IMG/VR virus record: IMGVR_UViG_3300025914_000009
Location: 60,984-124,983 of that record
DNA: 64,000 bases
Source: a virus
Strand: one strand, 5' to 3'
Every line of letters begins with the position of its first letter. The first letter of the stretch is position 1. The translations under genes and the position numbers were made by a program. The notes below the pieces were generated by a model, which was given only the letters and a program-made list of their open reading frames with translations, made no database searches and was not told where the DNA came from. Positions 9,447 to 50,305 of this stretch are shown piece by piece.

Positions 9447-10025
9447 ATGAAGCTATCTGAAAAGGGTAAAGATATCATTGAGGTCTTCATATTTAACATG
9501 AAATGGATCTTGCTTGCTTTCCTTATCAAATTAGGATGGGATCTTATGGTTCTAGCCTATTTTGTATACAGTCAGCCTGAACTCACTCAAGCCCAGCTGA
9601 TGCATTTCATTGAGGATGTGGATATTACAATGATTGCAATCCTTATAAAGATGATGATAGCAGGTGGTTATAACTCTTCTATATCCAAGAAACATGATTT
9701 TGATTCAGAGAATATTAGTAGTGGGCAGTTAAAGATTAAGATGGGTACATCTATCATAGGTATCTCTTCTGTTCATATGCTAAAAGTATTCATGGAGTCA
9801 GAGAATTTGACTGTGGAAGAAATATGGAAGAAAACTATTGTCCACTGTGCTTTTATTGTTGGAGGACTAGCACTATCTTTGATTGATTATTTACACTGTA
9901 AAACAGAATCTCATGAGACAATACCTACTTCTGGCTCTTTGCCTCATGTTAATAACATGGGGATGTCTGGAGAACACTCATTTCCACAGATACAAGAAAG
10001 CAAAGGTTTACACGGAGAGAAATGA
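9447..10025 (+). CDS. YqhA/UPF0114-like membrane protein
   Basis: Four TM segments; LKIKMGTSIIGISSVHML motif. Confidence 0.75.
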   Translation: MKLSEKGKDIIEVFIFNMKWILLAFLIKLGWDLMVLAYFVYSQPELTQAQLMHFIEDVDITMIAILIKMMIAGGYNSSISKKHDFDSENISSGQLKIKMGTSIIGISSVHMLKVFMESENLTVEEIWKKTIVHCAFIVGGLALSLIDYLHCKTESHETIPTSGSLPHVNNMGMSGEHSFPQIQESKGLHGEK

Positions 10026-10341
10026 TGATGGATCAGTCTTTCTTTACTATTACATATTAGCTACCTCCAATAACTATGGAGGGTCAAGCTATTATTATTA
10101 CTCCAGTAGGACTGCTGTTACTACATTCTCCCCTGCGGGCTGGTCAAACTCATCAATTGACCCAGTGAGCAAATTTGAAAACCTCAAGGAGGAGGATAAG
10201 GAGGTTGATGTTGATCTTGATGAAGAAGTTAATGGAGATATGATGGAAGAGATGCAAGACGATCCTGATATTTCAGAGGTAGGAGATGACTCAGCAGGTG
10301 ATTCCTCTGGAGATTCATCAGGGGATGGTTCAGGTGACTAA
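9913..10341 (+). CDS. putative lipoprotein with acidic tail
   Basis: Signal peptide ending ITWGC; D/S/G-rich C-terminus. Confidence 0.65.
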   Translation: MRQYLLLALCLMLITWGCLENTHFHRYKKAKVYTERNDDGSVFLYYYILATSNNYGGSSYYYYSSRTAVTTFSPAGWSNSSIDPVSKFENLKEEDKEVDVDLDEEVNGDMMEEMQDDPDISEVGDDSAGDSSGDSSGDGSGD

Positions 10342-10443
10342 TTTCAAAAGGGCACATACAGCAAACATTATAACAATTCACCTACATTTGAATTAAAAGT
10401 GTGCCCTGTTAAGGTCTGCAACAGCAAATATATCCTTGTGGCA

Positions 10444-10510
10444 CTGGGGGTCAGTGGTGGAAATCCACTCTGTGGGGAAACCCAAAGTAGCTTAGTACTT
10501 AGAGCACCAG
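10444..10510 (+). ncRNA. YrlA-type permuted tRNA mimic (unit B cargo)
   Basis: Order is T arm, GAAA-closed acceptor stem, D arm; closed by ctgg/ccag. Confidence 0.8.
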
Positions 10511-10569
10511 TTGGAGAAAAAATGCAGACCTGTTAAGATACCTAACAGCAAACAATTTGATCCTCTTGT

Positions 10570-10640
10570 GGATTAGTAGCTTAATTGGTAAAGCGCCCAA
10601 TTGATAATTGGGAGATCCTAGTTCAATTCTAGGCTTTAAA
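10570..10640 (+). tRNA. tRNA-Ile(GAT)-like element with degenerate acceptor stem (unit C cargo)
   Basis: D arm gcttaattggtaaagc; anticodon arm cccaa-ttGATaa-ttggg; T arm cctag-ttcaatt-ctagg. Confidence 0.6.
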
Positions 10641-10686
10641 GAGGTATCTGATAAGGGTTCTTACAGCAAATATTAGCAAATGGAAA

Positions 10687-10824
10687 CCTTTGGTCGGAGG
10701 TTCAAATCCTCCCCTCCCAACCAGATTTGGTGTCACCCTAAGGTGTTCAGGACAGCCAAATCTGGTGACTAATCAACCTGACCATATCTGGTTGGGAGGT
10801 AGCTCAGTCTGGTTAGAGCAGAGG
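10687..10824 (+). ncRNA. permuted tRNA mimic with encoded ACCA (unit D cargo)
   Basis: 3' half (T arm + cctcccaACCA, 10696-10723) precedes 5' half (tgggagg + D arm, 10793-10820). Confidence 0.8.
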
Positions 10825-11371
10825 ATGCAACAAAAGAACCCTGATAAGGAGACTTACAGCAAAACAACTCAACTTTCAACCGTTTATTTGAAATAGAGAG
10901 TCTCCTGATAAAGTGCCACACAGCAAATATTAATTCTTTTTCAACAAAGACCGCCCCTGGATGGGAGGAAGCTAAAGAGGTTCGATTCCTCAGGCACTTG
11001 ATAAGGTGAGCAGCAGCATTTAACTAAATAATGGCCCTAAGGTTGGGAAAACTGAAACAGTCATACCGATACTCTCATAGGTTAATACGAAAAGAGTAGT
11101 GTCAAAGGCCCCAAGGGGTACTGGCGGCTATACAAAGAATATGCTCATCTGATAAGGTCACATACAGCAAAAAGCTAAAAGCAATCATCTTGTAAATGAT
11201 AAAAACTGTGACCTGATAAGTAGAGTCTGAAAACCTAAAACATTAATTACGTACCCCCACTACAGGTTGGACTATTTCTATTATCCTACGCCAAGTTCAT
11301 TGACATATGGTTGGTGAATTATCTCCTGTTTGATTTGATAGTAGTGGTGGTATGTCTAAAACCACATTAAC

Positions 11372-11749
11372 ATGACCCCTGAACAGGTAAGAGATCTATG
11401 TATCAATATAGACATGAAATGTCTTGGTAATGATTCGTTCTACCTAAGGATAGAAAGGGATAATGAGCAACCTGTCGATGGGAGAGTCTTTATTCAGGTT
11501 AATTACAGTGCTCCTTGCATAAAGACTGGTGAGTTGAGACAATGGAGTGGTAGAAAGTGGTATCTTTCCAGACACATGACTCAAGATGAAGTGATTAAGA
11601 CAGCATTTGCTGCTTTCAAGGCTGCAGTAGAACATGAGATTCTGGAAGGGTTTAGCGTAGGGGGAAAATTACTATTCAATCCTCATGTTGACTTTACAGA
11701 ATTATTATCTATCTCCCAGAGGGAGGTAAAAAGAACAGAACAAACTTAA
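11372..11749 (+). CDS. conserved phage hypothetical protein
   Basis: W.GRKWYLS.HMT..E...TAF...EHE..E.F...FNPH. Confidence 0.8.
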   Translation: MTPEQVRDLCINIDMKCLGNDSFYLRIERDNEQPVDGRVFIQVNYSAPCIKTGELRQWSGRKWYLSRHMTQDEVIKTAFAAFKAAVEHEILEGFSVGGKLLFNPHVDFTELLSISQREVKRTEQT

Positions 11750-14493: not shown

Positions 14494-14507
14494 CAGAACA
14501 ACAAAAT

Positions 14508-14942
14508 AAGATGTCAGGTAGTTAATTAAATCCATAGGTCGCAGGTTTGAATCCTGTCTCCGCCTCTGTTCCGTAGCATTTTTTGTTTAAACGGCTGGTG
14601 TTTCTACATTAGCCTCATTTTAAACCAAATACTCATCATATGGCAGGAAAAGCTGGTGGTAAAGGTGGCAGAAAGATCGGAAGAAACAAGCGTAGAAATG
14701 AAAGAAAAGGTAGTCCAATCTCCCTTTTTGTTAGAGGAAAGATCACTGCGCACAAGTATTGGGAATTAACTGGGTTGTCTTCTCGTATTAAGCAGAGAGA
14801 AGCTGCCTAAAGTATCTATTGTCCAATAATAGACAAGTCCAGAGAACTGAGTTTCTACTCCCTTCTCTGGCATTCAAGGCGGAGTAGTTCAGTTGACAGA
14901 ACAATGGAATAATATTAGCTTAAGGCTACTTGAAAACATCTT
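14508..14942 (+). ncRNA. circularly permuted tRNA-like RNA enclosing an ORF
   Basis: 3' half at 14531-14565, 5' half at 14878-14908; perfect ggcggag/ctccgcc and atgga/tccat; outer helix 14508-14521/14926-14942. Confidence 0.75.
14640..14810 (+). CDS. 56-aa Gly/Lys/Arg-rich basic protein
   Basis: Read manually: MAGKAGGKGGRKIGRNKRRNERKGSPISLFVRGKITAHKYWELTGLSSRIKQREAA. Confidence 0.7.
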   Translation: MAGKAGGKGGRKIGRNKRRNERKGSPISLFVRGKITAHKYWELTGLSSRIKQREAA

Positions 14943-15025: not shown

Positions 15026-15119
15026 GGCGAAGTATGCAAATTGGTAAAGCAGTCCTCGTTGAGAGGATGGGACTAAATTCTGGGTAATGTCCATGGTAGT
15101 TCGAATCTATCCCTCGCCA
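15026..15119 (+). tRNA. class II (Leu/Ser-like) tRNA with aberrant anticodon arm
   Basis: ggcgaag/cctcgcc acceptor, Leu-type D loop, long variable arm, GTTCGAAT; anticodon loop non-canonical. Confidence 0.55.
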
Positions 15120-19851: not shown

Positions 19852-19952
19852 AGTCAGATAGCTCAGTTGGTTAGAGTACCTGCTAGGGCTTGATCGAAAG
19901 ATCAACGAAGCTGCCGCACAGGAGGTCAGGAGTTCGAATCTCCCTCTGACTT
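19852..19952 (+). tRNA. tRNA-like RNA with expanded anticodon arm
   Basis: Acceptor agtcaga/tctgact, canonical D and T arms; about 36 nt containing a GAAA hairpin replace the anticodon loop. Confidence 0.7.
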
Positions 19953-20212: not shown

Positions 20213-20270
20213 AGGGGGATAGCTCAGTGGTAGAGCATTCTTGTCGGAAGTTCGATTCTTCCTCCCCCTA
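20213..20270 (+). ncRNA. anticodon-less mini-tRNA (58 nt)
   Basis: aggggga/tccccct, D arm gctc-agtggta-gagc, 9-nt linker, T arm ggaag-ttcgatt-cttcc. Confidence 0.75.
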
Positions 20271-25288: not shown

Positions 25289-25289
25289 T

Positions 25290-25469
25290 ATGACAAATCT
25301 CGAAAAAGCAACCAGAGCTACTATCCTGCAGTTTGCTCTTGATAATATAGGGGCTACAGAGCTAAATCCTGTCAAGCAGGCAAGAGATCTGGGAGAGGCC
25401 CTCGAAGTAGAAATGGATGATGGAGTAAAGAAGATAGTAACAATCAATGTAACAGATTCAGATGAGTGA
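25290..25469 (+). CDS. hypothetical protein (59 aa)
   Basis: Read manually; fills the gap before the helicase. Confidence 0.55.
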   Translation: MTNLEKATRATILQFALDNIGATELNPVKQARDLGEALEVEMDDGVKKIVTINVTDSDE

Positions 25470-26544
25470 TTTTGATGACTTAGCAGGAGAAGTTCAGAGT
25501 GGCATGGATGGTGCCAATGCTGGTGTACCAATGGGGTTTCAGAGGCTGAACAATCACATAAGTATCAGAAAATCAACTAAGTATTTAATAGGAGGCTACA
25601 CTGGTAGTGGCAAAACTGCTCTACTGGATGATGCCTTTGTGTTAAATCCACTAGATTGGTACATTAGGAATTATAGTACTACGAGAATAAGACTGAAGTT
25701 AGTTTACTTTTCTATGGAGAGAAGAAAGAACTTCAAGTTGGCTAAGTGGATTTCCAGAAAGATATTCATGGATCATGGAGTACTTATTCCTGTGACCAGG
25801 TTAATGGGTTGGTGCCCAAGGGATCAGAGGCTAACTCCTGATGAGCATGATCTGTTCCTAATGCACAGAGAGTATATTGAGGCTCTTATGGAAGTGATTA
25901 TCATGATGGATTACCCAGAGAATCCCACAGGGATAAGGAAGTACATGAGGGAATTATATCTGAGGCACGGTAGGGAGGAACAGGTTACAGAGCATAAAAG
26001 GATATATATACCAAATGATCCTAATTTGATTATCATGAAGATCAAAGATCACTCTGGTCTGATAAAGAAAGAGAGTGGTCTTGCTACTAAAAAAGATGTG
26101 ATAGATAAAGCATCTGAAGATGATCGAATGGAAAGGGATTATTATGGGGGTTCTATAGTAGAGGTTTCTCAGTTCAATAGAGATATCTCAAGTCCCCTAA
26201 GGCTCAAATCAGGTGATGTAGAGCCAATGCTTGAGGATTTTAAGGACACTGGAGCTACTCAGGAGGATTCAGATGTGGTTTTATCACTATTTGATCCTAT
26301 GAGATATAAGGTTCCAGACCCCTCAGGGTATGATCTATCCTTACTCCGCTCCAGAGATGGAATGAAGATGTATAGATCCTTAAAAATCCTGAAGAATTCC
26401 TATGGCTCAGATGATATTAGGATAGGTCTTGCATTCCAACCTGTTGTAGGCATGTTTAAGGAAATGCCAAAGATAGGAGATATGACTCCAGAAGTCTATG
26501 AAACTATTTTGAACAATACGTTCTTTTTACCAGAAAACAGATAA
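25462..26544 (+). CDS. DnaB-like replicative helicase
   Basis: GYTGSGKT, FSME, SQFNR, FKDTG...EDSD. Confidence 0.88.
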   Translation: MSDFDDLAGEVQSGMDGANAGVPMGFQRLNNHISIRKSTKYLIGGYTGSGKTALLDDAFVLNPLDWYIRNYSTTRIRLKLVYFSMERRKNFKLAKWISRKIFMDHGVLIPVTRLMGWCPRDQRLTPDEHDLFLMHREYIEALMEVIIMMDYPENPTGIRKYMRELYLRHGREEQVTEHKRIYIPNDPNLIIMKIKDHSGLIKKESGLATKKDVIDKASEDDRMERDYYGGSIVEVSQFNRDISSPLRLKSGDVEPMLEDFKDTGATQEDSDVVLSLFDPMRYKVPDPSGYDLSLLRSRDGMKMYRSLKILKNSYGSDDIRIGLAFQPVVGMFKEMPKIGDMTPEVYETILNNTFFLPENR

Positions 26545-26545
26545 T

Positions 26546-27394
26546 ATGATTAAAACCATCAATTTGAACACAGGAGAGGGATATACTAAAACCGTATTCC
26601 CTGATTCTCAGCCTCATATTCACGTAGATGTAGCTTTGGAAGAGTACCTGGCCAGAGTAATAGTGTCTCTGGACTCCCCAGCAAAACTTCTTGAGCTATG
26701 TATGATATCTAGTGCTTTAGATCATCATAAGACTATCTCAAAGAGTGAGCTCCACATTACCTACTTATTGGGTGCCAGATCTGATAGAAATCATGATCTT
26801 CCCTTAGGGAGCAGCTTTGGTCTGAAAGTGATAGCAGATATCATTAATTCCCTTGAGTTCTTGGATGTATATCTCTATGATCCTCATTCAGATGTAGCCC
26901 CTGCTTTAATCAAAGGTTCAATTGTGGTTAATAATAGGGAGCTGGTGGAGGCTTATGATAAAAAGGATACAATTCTTATTGTTCCTGATGCAGGTGCTTC
27001 CAAAAAGGCACACAAATATGCTGAGTGGAATCCAAATATTAAAGAATCCATACAGTGTATAAAGCATAGAGACCTTTCTAATGGTAAAATAACTCTTGAA
27101 GTTCTTAACCCTGCAACATGTGCTGGGAGGCATTGTGTGATTATTGATGATATCTGTGATGGGGGTGGAACTTTCATTGCTATTGCTAAGCAGCTTAGAG
27201 ATCAGGGATGGAATCCTCTTTCTATGACTCTCATAGTTACTCATGGGATTTTCTCCAAAGGATTTGAGCCACTGGAAGAGTATTTTGATGAGATAATATG
27301 CTCAGACTCACTAGGAGTATGGATACATACAGGTAAAGTCAAAATAAAACAAATAGCTTATGACCCAGACAAATATGGAATTAATGCAGGATGA
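26546..27394 (+). CDS. PRPP-synthetase-like protein (Adps candidate, NARP1)
   Basis: FPD, ARSDR, DPHS, PDAGA, IIDDICDGGGTF, THG. Confidence 0.9.
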   Translation: MIKTINLNTGEGYTKTVFPDSQPHIHVDVALEEYLARVIVSLDSPAKLLELCMISSALDHHKTISKSELHITYLLGARSDRNHDLPLGSSFGLKVIADIINSLEFLDVYLYDPHSDVAPALIKGSIVVNNRELVEAYDKKDTILIVPDAGASKKAHKYAEWNPNIKESIQCIKHRDLSNGKITLEVLNPATCAGRHCVIIDDICDGGGTFIAIAKQLRDQGWNPLSMTLIVTHGIFSKGFEPLEEYFDEIICSDSLGVWIHTGKVKIKQIAYDPDKYGINAG

Positions 27395-47253: not shown

Positions 47254-47259
47254 ATTTTC

Positions 47260-47267
47260 TATATTTG
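47260..47267 (+). promoter_or_regulatory. -7 element TAnnTTTG with -33 TTTG
   Basis: TTTG at 47239, TATATTTG, then 4 nt to ATG 47272. Confidence 0.7.
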
Positions 47268-47271
47268 CACT

Positions 47272-47535
47272 ATGGCAACACTCGAAACATTACAAGCACA
47301 GGGACATCCTGTTACTTTAAGCTATGGTCAGAAAGCTGTAGGTCTTACATTCAATCCTGGTAAAGATCCAGCAGTAGAGTTAGTAAAACAGAAATATGCT
47401 GATCTCATTGATCTACTAGATTCTATGAGGACTGCAGCAGAAGGATCAGAGAAGAAAAGAATGTATTCTGTAGCTATCACAGATGCCCAAGCAAGCCAGA
47501 TGTGGGCAGTAAAAGCAATAACCTGGCAATATTAA
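47272..47535 (+). CDS. Acb2/Tad1-like cyclic-nucleotide sponge
   Basis: VGLTFNP...K...A.LID...KR..SVAIT..Q...MWAVKA.T. Confidence 0.65.
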   Translation: MATLETLQAQGHPVTLSYGQKAVGLTFNPGKDPAVELVKQKYADLIDLLDSMRTAAEGSEKKRMYSVAITDAQASQMWAVKAITWQY

Positions 47536-47539
47536 AACT

Positions 47540-47902
47540 ATGTCTAACATTTTCTTCTATCAGAGAGAAGTAACGAGAAAAGTAAAAGTGGAAGATCCGA
47601 AAGAAGGAGAGCCCACAGAAAAAGATGTAACAGAAACTTATTGGGATTGTTTCAACTTGAACAAGGTAATTAGAGGTCATTGGACAAGCCCTGACACCTT
47701 CACAATATTGATGGATGATGGGCATGAGCAGACAGATTCAGTAGATAACCCTGTATTTGGGAAGAGTGGAAAGTTAGTGAAGATTGATAAAGTGAGACAG
47801 AGAGATTGGTATATGTCCCAAATACCTCTCAACAAGCAGGATGCACTGAGGTACAGAGCAACAGTGGAAGCAAGGGTACAGACAGGTTTTATGGAGGGTT
47901 AA
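47540..47902 (+). CDS. conserved hypothetical protein
   Basis: FFY.R, FNLNKVIR, DDGHE. Confidence 0.8.
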   Translation: MSNIFFYQREVTRKVKVEDPKEGEPTEKDVTETYWDCFNLNKVIRGHWTSPDTFTILMDDGHEQTDSVDNPVFGKSGKLVKIDKVRQRDWYMSQIPLNKQDALRYRATVEARVQTGFMEG

Positions 47903-47906
47903 AATG

Positions 47907-47940
47907 AAAAAGAGGGGTACAAAACCCCTCTTTTTTTTTT
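47907..47940. terminator. bidirectional terminator at the strand convergence
   Basis: A5-gaggggt-acaaa-acccctc-T10. Confidence 0.85.
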
Positions 47941-47941
47941 C

Positions 47942-48070
47942 TTACTGTCCTCTACCACCAGTTTTATAACCGTAGGGATTTTTCCCTGTACCAGTTCCAC
48001 TTCCAGGCTTTTTAGGGCCCCTAGGGGGAACTGGGGTGGCAGACATCTTCTTCGCTTTCTTTTTGGCCAT
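47942..48070 (-). CDS. small basic Gly/Pro/Lys-rich protein (42 aa)
   Basis: Read manually: MAKKKAKKMSATPVPPRGPKKPGSG... Confidence 0.55.
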   Translation of the reverse strand: MAKKKAKKMSATPVPPRGPKKPGSGTGTGKNPYGYKTGGRGQ

Positions 48071-48076
48071 TTTTCA

Positions 48077-48394
48077 TTAGGATTTAGGCTTGAATAATTG
48101 ATTTACACCATCTTCCAGCTCTTCAAGATCATCTTTAGAAATATCACTAGCCTCTACGATTACTCCTTGCTCCACTCCATTTTTGAATATCTCCTGTACA
48201 GTATTAAAAGCCTCATATTTCAGAGCTATACTAGAACCTTCTGCAGTATTCACTTCTCTTGTAAGGCAGTGGTATAAAGCAGCTAGTTGCTGACCTGTGA
48301 TTTCAAATACATCTGTTGGCTCCCACTTGTAATTTGCATTGGGATTAAAAACAGGCTTAGTTTTGGAAGCCTTCATTGCTGTTACTTTTGCCAT
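48077..48394 (-). CDS. hypothetical protein
   Basis: Y.W.P.D.F.ITG. Confidence 0.75.
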   Translation of the reverse strand: MAKVTAMKASKTKPVFNPNANYKWEPTDVFEITGQQLAALYHCLTREVNTAEGSSIALKYEAFNTVQEIFKNGVEQGVIVEASDISKDDLEELEDGVNQLFKPKS

Positions 48395-48399
48395 TGGTT

Positions 48400-48681
48400 T
48401 TAGAAATTTATTAAATATGAAATATTGTTTCCTGCCTTCATGCTCTTTGAGAACTCAACGTGTATTCCCAGCATAGTATGAAACCTTTTTATAACATCAA
48501 AGATAGTAAGAAAGGTCAATGGAGTAGAAGGGCATATTCTTACCAGAACTCCATCTTCTTTTCTATATATCATCATGTCAGAATCAAAATCTACTGCCTC
48601 TATAAGACCCTCAAGGTAGTTTAAGTAGGTAGATTCATTATCTGGAATTACTGGTGGAAAGTTAAGTCTCTGAACTTGCAT
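48400..48681 (-). CDS. hypothetical protein
   Basis: Coupled ORF. Confidence 0.7.
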   Translation of the reverse strand: MQVQRLNFPPVIPDNESTYLNYLEGLIEAVDFDSDMMIYRKEDGVLVRICPSTPLTFLTIFDVIKRFHTMLGIHVEFSKSMKAGNNISYLINF

Positions 48682-49085
48682 TAGGACAAAGTTAGTAAAT
48701 ATTTTACTCTGTACCCAAGTCCACTTAAATCTGCTGCTTTATTTGATAAGGCCCACCACTTAGTTTCTTCCCCATACTCATAGAGCTCATCTGCAAACTT
48801 ACAGAGCTCATCAAGAAGTTTATCATGGTTTGCATTTTTATCTACAGGAATCTTAGGAGAGTCAGTAAATCTTTTAGGTCTTATATACCCAAGGAGGAGC
48901 TCTGAGATCTCATCCTTAAACTCTACGAGGCCCTTATAAAGCTTATCAAGAGCTTTATGCTCAGCGAATGAAGTGGTCTGTAGATGCTTGAAATGAGCCC
49001 AGTCATGGAAGTAAAATAACATCTGCATTGCCCTATCGGGCGTCATCTTCCCTCCTCCCTGAGGGGTAGGTAAATAACTTGCCAT
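48681..49085 (-). CDS. ferritin/Dps-like (DUF5856-like) protein
   Basis: H..HLQTTSFAEHKAL..LY, KYLLTL. Confidence 0.75.
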   Translation of the reverse strand: MASYLPTPQGGGKMTPDRAMQMLFYFHDWAHFKHLQTTSFAEHKALDKLYKGLVEFKDEISELLLGYIRPKRFTDSPKIPVDKNANHDKLLDELCKFADELYEYGEETKWWALSNKAADLSGLGYRVKYLLTLS

Positions 49086-49567
49086 TACTTATTGATTATT
49101 GCTTTAAAGATAGGTGGCCCAAGAAAGTATAGAATAATACCTACAAGCATTATCCATGCCCATAGAGGAGTCTTTTTCTTCACAACAGGAACATCTATAG
49201 TCTTTGTCTCCGAATGATATACTTGTGCGGTCTTTAATTTGACCAAACTATCTATCACTCTAACTAAGCTATCTGTCTTGCAATTCACAGTCAATCTACC
49301 TTTACTTATATCCACTTTAGCCTTTACTCTCCCTGAGGGAGATGTAGCTTCGTTATGATACTGAATATCTGGATAGGGGATACTATCATGTATTATAACA
49401 GCATCTGCAGGAACGACGTCTGTAACTGTTACATAAATAGTAGTATCTTTCACCACAATACTATCTTTTGTGACAATTTGTGGAGGAAATTTCTGAAGGC
49501 ATCTCTTCTGAGTAACACAAGATGCAAGAAACAGTATCAGGAGTCCTATTGTGATTATCCTTTTCAT
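49085..49567 (-). CDS. unimolecular spanin-like lipoprotein
   Basis: Lipobox LASC, beta-rich body, C-terminal TM segment. Confidence 0.6.
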   Translation of the reverse strand: MKRIITIGLLILFLASCVTQKRCLQKFPPQIVTKDSIVVKDTTIYVTVTDVVPADAVIIHDSIPYPDIQYHNEATSPSGRVKAKVDISKGRLTVNCKTDSLVRVIDSLVKLKTAQVYHSETKTIDVPVVKKKTPLWAWIMLVGIILYFLGPPIFKAIINK

Positions 49568-49752
49568 TCTTTTTCCTTTTCTTTCTTACCTCTTAGTGCC
49601 TTCACTATGACTATGCTATAGTGAACAATTGCTAATATTGATACGATTGAGCTTAACACAACTCCGATTGGTGGTAGGCTTGCGACCATGTTTAATAATA
49701 GTGTTACGGGCCACAGAACAGCACTGAAAATTTTGTCTATTTCTGAAGACAT
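49564..49752 (-). CDS. holin-like membrane protein
   Basis: Two TM segments, charged C-terminus, next to the spanin. Confidence 0.5.
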   Translation of the reverse strand: MSSEIDKIFSAVLWPVTLLLNMVASLPPIGVVLSSIVSILAIVHYSIVIVKALRGKKEKEKE

Positions 49753-49810
49753 TATTTTGACTTTTTAGGTTAACAAAATTAGGGGGGTTACTGCCCCCCT
49801 AATAAGGTCA

Positions 49811-50305
49811 TTAAGTAGTAGTTGTAGTAGTTGTTGTGCTGGTTGTTGTAGTAGTAGTTGTTGGGCCTGCATGTGCTACTATTGTATACACATCGCCTGC
49901 TGCAGTGAATGTATAAGTCAATGTGCCTGTAGTGCCTGTCTGGTTGGACAGGATAGCTCCTGTAGTGTCGTCAACAACAATGAGGCTCTTAGTAGTATCA
50001 GTTCCTGTCACAGTTACTGTAACGCTCTGTCCACTTCCTGCAGCAAATGTACCTGAAGCACTTGTAAGAGTATCTTCTACAGTTGCTCCACCTACAGTTA
50101 GTACAAATTCCCCATTTGAAGCAGGTGCCAGATAGGCATAATTTGACATTGGGAGAGCACAACATTCATCGTTGGTGATTTCTTTCCAGAAATATCCTCT
50201 ACCTCCTTCAGGGGGAGCATATCTTAATATTAATGTTCCTGGAACCACCTGTCCAAGTTTGTCGAACTTGACAAAAGCCCTTAATCTAGGGTTTCGCTTT
50301 GCCAT
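49811..50305 (-). CDS. probable virion protein with C-terminal poly-Thr tail
   Basis: Beta-rich body ending PTTTTTTTSTTTTTTTT. Confidence 0.75.
   Translation of the reverse strand: MAKRNPRLRAFVKFDKLGQVVPGTLILRYAPPEGGRGYFWKEITNDECCALPMSNYAYLAPASNGEFVLTVGGATVEDTLTSASGTFAAGSGQSVTVTVTGTDTTKSLIVVDDTTGAILSNQTGTTGTLTYTFTAAGDVYTIVAHAGPTTTTTTTSTTTTTTTT

Follow-up and report, generated by a model that had tools for sequence, protein, structure and literature searches.

Particles of Ro60 and Y RNA occur in animals, in some bacteria and in a few phages, and the Y RNAs at one locus are usually few. The locus considered here lies in a viral stretch of 64,000 nucleotides (the window), where the initial annotation had seen a clear YrlA-type permuted tRNA mimic, and it raises the question of what such an RNA is when it is found as one of several tandem units near the gene of a Ro-like protein. 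The answer that is developed below, and that we consider rather probable, is that this RNA, called unit B, is a gene-sized unit of a polycistronic Y-RNA-like array, consisting of a handle that docks a Ro60-fold protein and of a tRNA-like body.

An Array of Eight Handle-Bearing Units

Unit B (10411-10532) is the second of eight units, A to H, in an array at 10348-11222 on the + strand, where the last unit is followed by a terminal half-repeat. The array lies in a complete phage genome of 125 kb, and the Ro-like gene is 1.1 kb upstream. Each unit has its own closing stem of 9 bp within invariant AAG...CUG and carries ACAGCAA after the 5' strand of the stem; together these elements form the handle. 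The repeat between units, CUG-(A/U)U-AAG-N7-ACAGCAA, has 11 matches versus 1.73 expected, and 11 matches were reached in none of 100 shuffles.

Units are compared in the following with a covariance model, R1, whose seed consists of 12 units that come from other viral contigs, with the window sequence excluded. Units A (10348-10408), E (10846-10907) and H (11154-11215; R1 31.5 bits) are small and have the handle only. Unit C (10535-10650) joins the handle to a non-permuted tRNA-like core, with D, anticodon (loop UUGAUAA) and T arms and with the handle in place of the acceptor stem. The Rfam tRNA model scores this unit at 52.6 bits, in a match at 10575-10635 that covers model positions 6-65 only, and ARAGORN makes no tRNA call there. 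Unit D (10653-10843; R1 80 bits, E 3e-13) has the handle and a permuted tRNA-like body, in which the acceptor 3' strand is followed by an encoded CCA and the acceptor loop holds a long insert. Unit F (10910-11000; R1 20.6 bits) has the handle and a body with a T-arm-like hairpin, while unit G (11003-11151) has a variant handle, GCAGCAU, and a structured body of unknown type; both have a homolog at locus L004 by blastn. All units are on the + strand. In the region 7300-11500, a scan for promoters and terminators gave no more than shuffle level.

Three other identities for the array were dropped. A CRISPR array disagrees with the unit lengths, which vary from 55 to 190 nt. Hammerhead and other known ribozymes have no match in Rfam, and CUGAUAAG differs from the core of the hammerhead. 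Canonical tRNA genes were set aside on the ARAGORN result and on the presence of separate such genes: the phage has about 18 of them, away from the array and on the opposite strand, from which follows that the array is not the tRNA set of the phage.

The Neighbouring Protein and Its Start Codon

The gene upstream of the array (7548-9254, + strand) encodes a protein of 568 amino acids with a match to Pfam DUF7788, a weak match to DUF2828, and a match to PHROG 850, 'RNA-binding protein', at E 1.6e-28. Its AlphaFold2 model (pLDDT 76.9) has a helical N-terminal part and an alpha/beta C-terminal part. When the model is compared with the PDB by Foldseek, the top 11 matches are all Ro60/TROVE proteins, aligned over their full length at E 2e-6 to 5e-4; phage Ro60 is among them, with entries 9KOP and 9L5Y within the top three. 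The alignments have 496-609 columns, with moderate TM scores of 0.32-0.51 and identities of 10-14%. The protein is thus predicted, by fold, to have a HEAT-repeat ring and a vWA domain as in Ro60/TROVE, and in this respect the Ro interpretation of the initial annotation is supported. Pfam TROVE (PF05731) is absent from the protein at E<=10, and a sequence search of the PDB gave chance-level matches only, with Ro60 absent at E<=1. By tblastn there are weak matches in mycobacteriophages, to proteins that bear the annotation 'Ro-like RNA binding protein'. At 90% identity the protein family falls into at least 2,008 clusters, and the recorded taxa are mostly phages.

The start of this gene coincides with a handle-like element at 7545-7608 (+ strand; R1 28.6 bits), laid out as AAG, a stem with the AUG inside, ACAGCAA, and then ...ACAUCUG as 3' strand. 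In 12 of 15 homologous loci the gene has an AAG-ATG start that is followed downstream by CATCTG at a distance of 38-65 nt, and CATCTG is present in 12 of 14 ORF heads versus 0.017 expected per interval searched. In the protein model, the 44 N-terminal residues encoded in the start-codon handle copy have pLDDT below 50.

To see how the array and the protein are distributed, consider 56 viral loci that were selected by the exact repeat pattern, and in which homologs of the protein were found by tblastn. A homolog is present in 24 of the 56, and the repeats are clustered in 29, with up to nine tight tandem repeats in an array. Clustering and homolog go together: within the sequence available for each locus, the homolog is found in 21 of the 29 loci with clustered repeats versus 3 of the 27 without. 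In cellular genomes, one of 120 pattern matches is clustered. Unannotated units abut the homologous gene in Leptolyngbya phage Lbo-JY46 and in Listeria phage cka15, and in the latter R1 locates three handle-bearing units 74-338 nt upstream of the gene. The best reading of these observations is that the arrays are a widespread, phage-borne new variant of the Ro/Y-RNA system.

Two side observations may be recorded here. Read by eye, the cka15 units seem to have promoter-like sequences of their own; and among named phages, blastn with the array gives a single match of 50 nt, in Klebsiella phage FBKp34.

The handle may be read differently. Its invariant bases fall exactly on the junctions between units, and its binding by the Ro-like protein is inferred only; AAG-stem-ACAGCAA...CUG could then be a signal for processing by a host or phage RNase, or for stability, instead of a protein site, and the shared neighbourhood could reflect co-expression only. 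The apparent promoters of the cka15 units and the eight of 29 array loci where no homolog is seen would be in line with this. Several of those eight loci are however short, at 1.5-4.8 kb, or carry the array at their edge, and the co-occurrence of array and homolog given above speaks against this reading. Furthermore, the handle copy at the start codon, in 12 of 15 homologs, has no upstream junction, and fits recognition of the own mRNA better than it fits processing. A mere processing signal is therefore unlikely, and we proceed with the reading of the handle as a putative docking site.

The Structure of Unit B

Read from the sequence, the closing stem of unit B pairs 10412-10420 with 10523-10531 over 9 bp and is bordered by A10411 and by G10532, the last G of CUG. 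The conserved single-stranded motif ACAGCAA follows the 5' strand at 10421-10427. The body is enclosed by an anticodon-stem-like helix of 5 bp, ACUGG at 10443-10447 with CCAGU at 10507-10511, inside which comes the variable loop GGGUC (10448-10452) and then the T arm (10453-10469; AGUGG/UGGAAAU/CCACU, 5 bp and loop UGGAAAU), which is identified both from the sequence and by R1. The acceptor-like hairpin (10470-10487), CUGUGGG-GAAA-CCCAAAG, has six of seven positions paired, a single G.A mismatch and a GAAA loop. UA at 10488-10489 separates it from the D arm (10490-10505; GCUU/AGUACUUA/GAGC, 4 bp), with A10506 directly 3' of the latter; hairpin and D arm are both found in the sequence, by R1 and by RNAfold. 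On its outer side, the enclosing stem opens to an internal loop of 22 nt and 11 nt and to the handle, and unit B has therefore no anticodon loop.

All helices that the initial annotation had named are thus found within 10411-10532. Its enclosing stem is present, with four of the five pairs given; its acceptor hairpin with GAAA tetraloop is present as well, the G.A mismatch having gone unmentioned. The arm order it ascribed to YrlA agrees with Chen et al. 2014 (PMC4201824), and its remark that the T loop deviates applies also to the D loop, which is without GG, so that both loops are off the tRNA consensus. The core positions U8, A9, A14, G15-C48, A21 and U54-A58 are retained, while G18, G19, U55 and C56 have become C, U, G and G. 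From this follows that the canonical elbow contacts G18-psi55 and G19-C56 are impossible as such; a swapped pairing, C18-G55 with U19-G56, is possible on the evidence of this one sequence. Among 49 units aligned over both loops, a UGGAAAU T loop occurs together with a D loop without GG in unit B only.

How often such an arrangement arises by chance was estimated with a strict descriptor, which demands a T arm of 5-7-5 layout directly adjoining a 7-bp hairpin, where one mismatch is allowed and the loop may have 3-12 nt, followed by 2 nt, by a D stem of 4 bp whose loop has 7-11 nt, and by 1 nt; all of this must lie within an enclosing stem of 4 bp, with a variable loop of 4-5 nt. Unit B has one match; among 20,000 shuffled versions of the unit with its dinucleotides preserved, one has a match as well, and when the enclosing stem is left out of the descriptor, 68 of 20,000 shuffles match. 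The minimum-energy fold from RNAfold has -40.0 kcal/mol (z -2.13), and 5 of 200 shuffles are equally stable. This fold retains the closing stem, the acceptor hairpin and the D arm, and has CACUG/CAGUG and GUGG/CCAC hairpins instead of T arm and enclosing stem. The tRNA-like parse has -32.9 kcal/mol, so that the fold with the other T region is favoured by 7 kcal/mol.

YrlA-Like in Architecture, a Different Family

The search with the Rfam YrlA model (RF02553, gathering score 69 bits), which the initial annotation had proposed as a check, leaves unit B unmatched at E<=10, whether 136 or 961 bases are searched. In the search of 961 bases there is a sub-threshold match on unit D, at 31.9 bits, over model positions 23-89 with a 74-nt insert, and other phage units score 24.6-37.9 bits. 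The motif of the Ro-binding module of YrlA, GNCGAA(N0-1)G, is absent from the 5' strand of unit B, where ACAGCAA is found instead. The Rfam tRNA model RF00005 and ARAGORN also miss the unit. Unit B has, in other words, the arm order of YrlA with another handle and with no YrlA match, and it is therefore a YrlA-type tRNA mimic in architecture that comes from a different RNA family. What stands of the 'clear YrlA-type' designation is the arm order; the silence of the YrlA model, the missing GNCGAA(N)G motif and a neighbouring protein that is not Pfam TROVE speak against the rest.

This different family is the one described by R1. The model aligns unit B over its full length, model positions 1-134, at 60.2 bits and E 2e-9, and it does so in the very register that the initial annotation had read; about 40 foreign units share this register, and unit D is also aligned full length. 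Units that are matched by the handle alone receive 20-29 bits when the window is searched and, at other loci, up to about 39 bits. In the seed of 12 units, the modelled positions are paired to 100% in the closing stem, 95% in the T stem, 96.6% in the acceptor and 93.8% in the D stem, versus 36-42% in slid controls, and the covariation score was attained by none of 500 shuffles. When 97 distinct units from 29 sources are aligned, in an alignment fitted to the model, the corresponding values are 99.1, 97.6, 90.6 and 95.6%, and compensatory changes occur in all six modelled pairs of the closing stem. The enclosing helix is the weakest of the family, with 55% paired in the seed and 71.8% in the 97 units. 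Units were kept only if they abutted another unit, as the permissive finder gave 82 control matches versus 297 real ones. A close homolog of unit B was not found by blastn-short in the 56 viral loci, and its own helices are for this reason without direct covariation support.

The departures just described could mean that unit B is a decaying copy of a tRNA mimic like unit D, where elbow and mimicry have been lost and the handle remains. The T loop departs from UUCRANY together with the loss of GG from the D loop, in a combination unique among the aligned units; the Rfam YrlA and tRNA models are silent; the T region is refolded in the minimum-energy fold; and the acceptor hairpin has its G.A mismatch. 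Yet all five helices of unit B are intact, with one mismatch overall, the core positions listed above are kept, and the four deviant loop positions could pair mutually. In addition, the R1 score exceeds those of handle-only matches by roughly 20-30 bits or more. Decay is accordingly quite unlikely.

Nor is unit B likely to be a permuted tRNA gene, maturing to a decoding tRNA by circularisation or end-joining and opening of the acceptor loop. The T-before-D order is like that of permuted tRNA genes of some algae, and in unit D an encoded CCA follows the acceptor 3' strand. It may be added that YrlA of M. smegmatis is cleaved by RNase P and receives CCA (PMC4201824). Unit B, however, has an internal loop of 22 nt and 11 nt where an anticodon loop would be required, neither ARAGORN nor the Rfam tRNA model makes a call, the phage has its own canonical tRNA cluster, and RtcB ligase is absent from the phage, which makes this reading highly improbable. 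That the cloverleaf-like parse consists of chance helices within a real handle-bearing unit, as their shortness (4-7 bp) and the different minimum-energy fold could suggest, has a very small probability in view of the single match in 20,000 shuffles and of the full-length R1 alignment in a register common to foreign units.

Likeness to Known Systems

The preferred reading, a unit of a Y-RNA-like array, can be compared with four systems, of which YrlA is the first. As described in the sections of PMC4201824 drawn on here, the YrlA gene is near that of a Ro60-type ring protein; the RNA ends form a terminal stem, and the internal loop next to it has a conserved motif on the 5' strand; the tRNA-like module is ordered V region, T arm, acceptor-like stem-loop and D arm, with no anticodon loop; one precursor can yield several Y RNAs; and a 7-bp acceptor is a possible substrate of RNase P and of the CCA enzyme, to be compared with the CCA encoded in unit D. 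This layout is shared with the phage units, for which the Ro60-type fold of the neighbouring protein is predicted and processing from one precursor is probable. The differences are the Ro-binding motif, GNCGAA(N)G versus the phage handle AAG-stem-ACAGCAA...CUG; the number of RNAs, one to few in YrlA bacteria (PMC4201824) versus arrays of up to nine repeats; the partner, a TROVE-domain Ro60 for YrlA and a putative one for the arrays, a DUF2828/DUF7788 protein that is not Pfam TROVE; and the tRNA nucleotides, invariant in YrlA and non-canonical in the T and D loops of unit B.

Thermus phage phiLo has a Ro60-type protein and adjoining Y-RNA-like genes, Yrl1 and Yrl2 (PMC12135203; PDB 9KOP, 9L5Y), and its RNAs share with the present units a 5'-3' stem and, beside it, an internal loop in which a short motif is conserved. 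They differ in being two, in having a CGAA motif, and in that no tRNA-like module is described in the sections of PMC12135203 used here; phiLo Ro60 and the window protein are 13-14% identical by Foldseek. The protein CKA15_055 of Listeria phage CKA15 is homologous to the window protein at 25% identity. It has been matched to Rsr by HHpred, and nearby abundant non-coding transcripts have been proposed as Y RNAs (PMC12282133). In the parts of that paper considered here, the motif and structure of these RNAs are left undefined, and the coordinates, 26,236-26,727 or about 500 nt, denote another region than that of the R1 units, for which the interval in OR088597.1 is 25,289-25,553. Two further highly transcribed regions of that phage may correspond to these units.

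The fourth system is eukaryotic. The Dictyostelium Class I RNAs (RF01414) start with AAG, have a terminal stem that is conserved in structure and not in sequence, a motif ending in ...ACAGCAA directly 3' of the 5' stem strand, a variable body and a CUG(U) end (PMC7919456); the units of the Listeria phage also end in CUGU, and small phage units, at 55-70 nt, are comparable in size to Class I RNAs of 42-65 nt. RF01414 scores units A, E and H at 21.9, 24.7 and 24.6 bits, and 13 units in 10 other loci at 23.4-39.7 bits, where these loci had been chosen by a pattern that overlaps the conserved bases of the model. The alignments in the arrays are all full length, on unit boundaries and inside the arrays. 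Every score is under the gathering score of 41.5, a search of the whole window gives two matches at E about 3, and unit B, searched as 136 bases, has no match. There are also differences. The phage stem has 9 bp versus 6 bp for the Class I stem, whose motif has 11 nt; each Class I RNA has a single eukaryotic gene of its own, preceded by a DUSE promoter, and these RNAs are reported as unique to dictyostelids; and the protein known to bind them directly, Rnp1A/CIBP, is of the RRM type and not Ro-like (PMC7919456). The likeness of the handles, below the Rfam threshold, is only a lead, and that the phage handle is the same RNA element as that defining Class I RNAs is a doubtful proposition.

In a literature search that was scarce in subscription journals, and that covered passages from the main texts of Chen et al. 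2014 and Kjellin et al. 2021 (PMC7919456), whose supplementary tables list phage YrlA RNAs and non-dictyostelid candidates, respectively, neither the motif, nor the array, nor an RNA partner of a DUF2828/DUF7788 protein was found described. The RNA family to which unit B belongs is distinct from YrlA, and undescribed in the literature and databases searched.

Discussion

The following scheme is suggested by these results. The conserved handle, a 9-bp stem framed by AAG and CUG together with ACAGCAA, would be the dock for the DUF2828/DUF7788 protein with its predicted Ro60 fold. The body of unit B would be the 'top half' of a tRNA in permuted order, i.e., a T arm, an acceptor-like hairpin closed by GAAA, and a D arm. 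As Ro60/Y RNA particles suggest by analogy, the handle would be gripped by the protein, and the tRNA-like body would recruit or titrate a factor specific for the acceptor and elbow region. Such a factor could be RNase P or Z, a CCA-adding or T-loop-modifying enzyme, an exonuclease, or a tRNA-targeting defence nuclease of the host. The array is probably cut within the 2-nt linkers, from CUG to AAG, and the Ro-like protein probably represses its own translation through the handle copy that may sequester its AUG.

The locus points to a far larger branch of Ro/Y-RNA systems, absent from current annotation, in which the RNAs of an array combine one invariant handle with tRNA top halves, an acceptor-less tRNA, a lone T arm or no body at all. 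For a protein that carries a 'domain of unknown function', a concrete and testable RNA motif is gained, and an autoregulatory site on the mRNA of the Ro-like protein itself is suggested. The abundant non-coding transcripts near the homologous gene of Listeria P100-like phages, which are used in biocontrol, may find an explanation in the same way.

Class I RNAs have so far been without a known mechanism, and DDB_G0281243 is an uncharacterised protein from a pull-down (PMC7919456 and preprint, in the sections considered). If the phage handle were the Class I element, then these RNAs would act as Y-RNA-like partners for a protein of Ro fold and DUF2828 type, with an ancestry common to, or acquired in exchange with, a very large family of phage arrays. 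DDB_G0281243 would then be the first candidate partner, and this would be the first mechanistic lead for these RNAs.

For the phages themselves, partial tRNAs on a protein handle suggest that enzymes that recognise tRNA are recruited or decoyed, which bears on the anti-phage defence systems that target tRNA.

Structure of unit B

Unit B belongs to an unannotated family of phage RNA arrays, within which it is divergent; the family is widespread, covaries strongly and occurs together with a protein predicted to have the Ro60 fold. Unit B is the second of eight units (A to H) in a tandem array on the plus strand (10348-11222, read from 9800-11420), and within 10411-10532 all elements listed in the initial annotation are present. 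An enclosing stem ACUGG/CCAGU contains, in order, the variable loop GGGUC, the T arm AGUGG-UGGAAAU-CCACU, an acceptor-like hairpin CUGUGGG-GAAA-CCCAAAG with one G.A mismatch, the dinucleotide UA, and the D arm GCUU-AGUACUUA-GAGC followed by A. The arrangement is real and non-random: a strict descriptor of it gives one match in unit B and was matched in 1 of 20,000 shuffles that preserve dinucleotides. The initial observation is confirmed, with the caveat that the minimum-energy fold (-40.0 kcal/mol, z -2.13), which keeps the closing stem, the acceptor hairpin and the D arm, has a refolded T region, and the fold proposed at the outset evaluates to -32.9 kcal/mol.

The deviating T loop, UGGAAAU, also stands. 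When the units of the family with letters in both loops are aligned, 44 of 49 have a 7-nt T loop that starts with UUC, most have GG in the D loop, and only unit B combines UGGAAAU with the D loop AGUACUUA. Relative to the family consensus D loop, AGUUGGUA, positions 18 and 19 change from G,G to C,U, and positions 55 and 56 of the T loop change from U,C to G,G. As read from this one sequence, the changes could allow pairing of C18 with G55 and of U19 with G56. The tRNA core positions U8, A9, A14, G15-C48, A21 and U54-A58 are kept.

The architecture equals that of YrlA, the bacterial Y RNA with a tRNA-like domain, as described by Chen et al. 2014 (PMC4201824). The label "YrlA-type" holds for the topology of unit B but fails as a family assignment on two counts, the Rfam score and the Ro-binding motif described there. 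The Infernal comparison with the YrlA model (RF02553) that had been proposed as a check gave no unit B match, neither at gathering level nor at E<=10 over 961 or 136 bases, and ARAGORN and the Rfam tRNA model detected nothing in the unit.

The array and its handle

The source virus record has 124,983 bases and is rated 100% complete. The window, its second half (60984-124983), is gene-dense, has a G+C content of 38-41% and encodes phage-type DNA polymerase, DnaB-like, RecA-like and beta-helix tail-fibre-like proteins.

The units of the array are separated by the repeat CUG-(A/U)U-AAG-N7-ACAGCAA. With at most three mismatches it occurs 11 times in the window when 1.73 occurrences are expected, a number reached in none of 100 shuffles; seven of the 11 lie inside the array, and six of these seven have one mismatch or none. 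In all units the AG+N7 that follows one repeat is complementary to the N7+CU ahead of the next. It follows that every unit has a closing stem of its own, 8-9 bp long and flanked by an invariant AAG and CUG; this stem and the ACAGCAA after its 5' strand are here called the handle, and the remainder of a unit its body.

The bodies differ. In unit C the tRNA-like core is not permuted (Rfam tRNA 52.6 bits, model positions 6-65), and the handle takes the place of the acceptor stem. Unit D scores 31.9 bits with the YrlA model, against a gathering threshold of 69, over model positions 23-89 (the tRNA-like domain) only; 74 nt are inserted in its acceptor loop. Its 5' part (10661-10710) is 86% identical over 50 nt to an unannotated spot in Klebsiella phage vB_KpM_FBKp34 (MW394390.1, 106482-106531).

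That the units serve as decoding tRNAs of the phage was rejected, since about 18 canonical tRNA genes lie elsewhere, outside the window and on the opposite strand (47254-50268 (-) of the full record), and no RtcB was found in the phage. One further tRNA gene lies at 59591-59663 of that record. The window also holds a second kind of permuted tRNA-like element, lacking the ACAGCAA handle, at 14505-14922 (+). Its T arm and acceptor 3' strand (about 14530-14566) are some 300 nt from its acceptor 5' strand and D arm (about 14876-14905), with a 56-codon basic ORF (14640-14810) in between. Three non-standard tRNA-like genes are found at 19852-19952, 20213-20270 and 15026-15119 (all +); among them are one with a 36-nt insert replacing the anticodon loop, a 58-nt form with about 4 nt replacing the anticodon arm that ends 2 nt before the DNA polymerase ORF, and a tRNA-Gln call of 94-95 nt with an insert.

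A covarying RNA family

A scan of viral contigs for the exact repeat gave 56 loci, 29 of which have clustered repeats, in arrays of up to nine counted repeats. Among the matches listed for cellular genomes, all 120 loci have a single exact match, about the chance expectation for 16 fixed bases, and a second relaxed repeat lies nearby in one. This locus, the one of the 120 with two clustered repeats (6468-6560 (+) of its contig), is from an uncultured Lachnospiraceae metagenome-assembled genome and could be either a prophage or a binned phage.

The permuted tRNA-like body of unit B is common to many units of other arrays, some of which also have a four-base loop closing the acceptor stem. Twelve such units from 10 foreign loci were aligned. 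In this alignment 100% of the cells in the closing stem are paired, 95% in the T stem, 96.6% in the acceptor stem and 93.8% in the D stem; slid controls are 36-42% paired, and the enclosing stem is poorly aligned (55%). Of the 25 pairs, 22 show compensatory changes, and the covariation score was reached in none of 500 shuffles.

A covariance model, R1, built on these foreign units alone recovers unit D with 80 bits (E 3e-13) and unit B with 60.2 bits (E 2e-9), both at full length, and aligns unit B in the register parsed initially. Matches to the handle only score 20-29 bits in the window search and reach about 39 bits in other loci; on the element without a handle R1 gives weak matches (14505-14642, 14.4 bits; 14799-14922, 21.5 bits). 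Over 57 sources there are 109 matches at E<=0.01. The 97 distinct ones are paired to 99.1% in the closing, 97.6% in the T, 90.6% in the acceptor and 95.6% in the D stem, in an alignment that is fitted to R1 and therefore biased towards it.

No close homolog of unit B was found in the 56 viral loci. In the nearest relative of the phage, whose Ro-like protein is 70% identical, units D, F, G and H have homologs and unit B has none. In another related locus a phage-encoded tmRNA (1-337 (-), Rfam 52.3 bits, truncated by the end of the locus) directly adjoins an array of handle units.

A protein of predicted Ro60 fold

Upstream of the array an ORF at 7548-9254 encodes a 568-aa protein with a Pfam match to DUF7788 (E 3e-10), a weak one to DUF2828 and, up to E<=10, none to TROVE. 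Its match among the PHROGs is PHROG 850, "RNA-binding protein" (E 1.6e-28), and a PDB sequence search gave nothing relevant. An AlphaFold2 model from a 13-sequence alignment (pLDDT 76.9, pTM 0.72; residues 1-44 below 50) has, as its best 11 Foldseek PDB matches, exclusively Ro60/TROVE structures (Thermus phage phiLo, Xenopus, human, Deinococcus). These alignments span 496-609 columns, at E 2e-6 to 5e-4, TM 0.32-0.51 and 10-14% identity.

Among 8,000 scored candidates the protein family comprises at least 2,008 clusters (90% identity) at E<=0.001, and the taxa recorded are mostly viral. Of the named phages, Leptolyngbya phage Lbo-JY46 (125,312 bp) gives the best match, with 45.7% identity. Others match less well, at 23-26%; among them are 54 Listeria phage records (P100/A511 type), Enterococcus phages and mycobacteriophage proteins that carry the annotation "Ro-like RNA binding protein".

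A GIY-YIG/NUMOD homing-endonuclease-like ORF, the sole reverse-strand gene in that stretch, lies directly upstream of the Ro-like gene (6924-7499 (-)). A NADAR-domain protein is encoded 1.8 kb upstream (5203-5751 (+)), and genes annotated as tRNA splicing ligase, YbiA-like and RNA ligase are found close to the homologous gene of Listeria phage cka15 (8582-12294 of the extracted locus). These neighbours suggest a recurring RNA-repair neighbourhood.

Two links between RNA and protein

Within the sequence extracted for each viral locus, a homolog of the protein is encoded in 21 of the 29 that have clustered repeats, compared with 3 of the 27 others. Several of the eight array loci that lack one are short, or their array lies at an edge of the locus. 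In Lbo-JY46 four unannotated R1 units lie 7-360 nt past the stop of the gene, and in cka15 three, ending in CUGU, lie 74-338 nt upstream of CKA15_055. According to the available text of the cka15 paper (PMC12282133), CKA15_055 was matched to Rsr by HHpred and nearby abundant non-coding transcripts were suggested to be Y RNAs; that text does not define the RNA motif, and the sole transcribed region for which it gives coordinates differs from the three R1 units. This region, the most transcribed non-coding one reported there (about 500 nt; OR088597.1 26,236-26,727, locus positions 4219-4710), has no handle motif and so may be a separate large structured RNA.

A handle copy over the start of the Ro-like gene is a second, independent link. 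At 7545-7608, AAG, an AUG-containing stem and ACAGCAA are followed by ...ACAUCUG (R1 28.6 bits), and the N-terminus encoded there is predicted to be disordered in the AlphaFold2 model. In 12 of 15 homologous loci AAG precedes the ORF and CAUCUG follows 38-65 nt downstream, with 5-8 contiguous pairs; in the three loci lacking AAG, CAUCUG is absent too. CATCTG occurs in 12 of 14 ORF heads, whereas the remainder of these ORFs gives an expectation of 0.017 per window; the heads are related sequences, so the occurrences cannot be counted as independent. Repression of its own translation by an RNA-binding protein would leave such a pattern, and we infer from it that the Ro-like protein may act in this way.

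Relation to known systems

The main texts of the literature accessible to us gave no description of the handle, the arrays or an RNA partner for DUF2828/DUF7788 proteins. A few jumbo phages are on record as having a "ROT/TROVE with a tRNA-like partner", and the closest phage precedent is the phiLo Ro60 with two Yrl RNAs (PMC12135203).

The handle has the same layout as Dictyostelium Class I RNAs, a likeness that is a lead and not a finding. As described by Kjellin et al. 2021 (PMC7919456), these start with AAG and have a short terminal stem of which the structure alone is conserved, a motif of 11 nt beside the 5' stem strand that ends in ACAGCAA, a variable body and a CUGU end; their terminal stem is, however, shorter than that of the phage handle, and the direct binder named there is an RRM protein. 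The Class I model (RF01414) gives 21.9-24.7 bits on units A, E and H and 23.4-39.7 bits on 13 units in 10 related loci, all below the gathering threshold of 41.5. The latter alignments are all full length, on unit boundaries and inside arrays, in loci selected by a pattern that overlaps the conserved bases of the model; the same search gave five YrlA matches at 24.6-37.9 bits. An unbiased RF01414 search of the whole window gave two matches with E of about 3.

A possible adaptor function

The units resemble adaptors of the Y RNA kind. Their handle would bind the Ro-fold protein, and the body would display the top half of a tRNA in units B and D, a tRNA without acceptor stem in unit C, a T arm in unit F, another structure in unit G, and almost nothing in units A, E and H. 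By analogy with the Ro60/Y RNA/PNPase complexes (PMC4201824, PMC12135203), the body may serve to recruit, or else to titrate, a factor able to recognise the shape of a tRNA.
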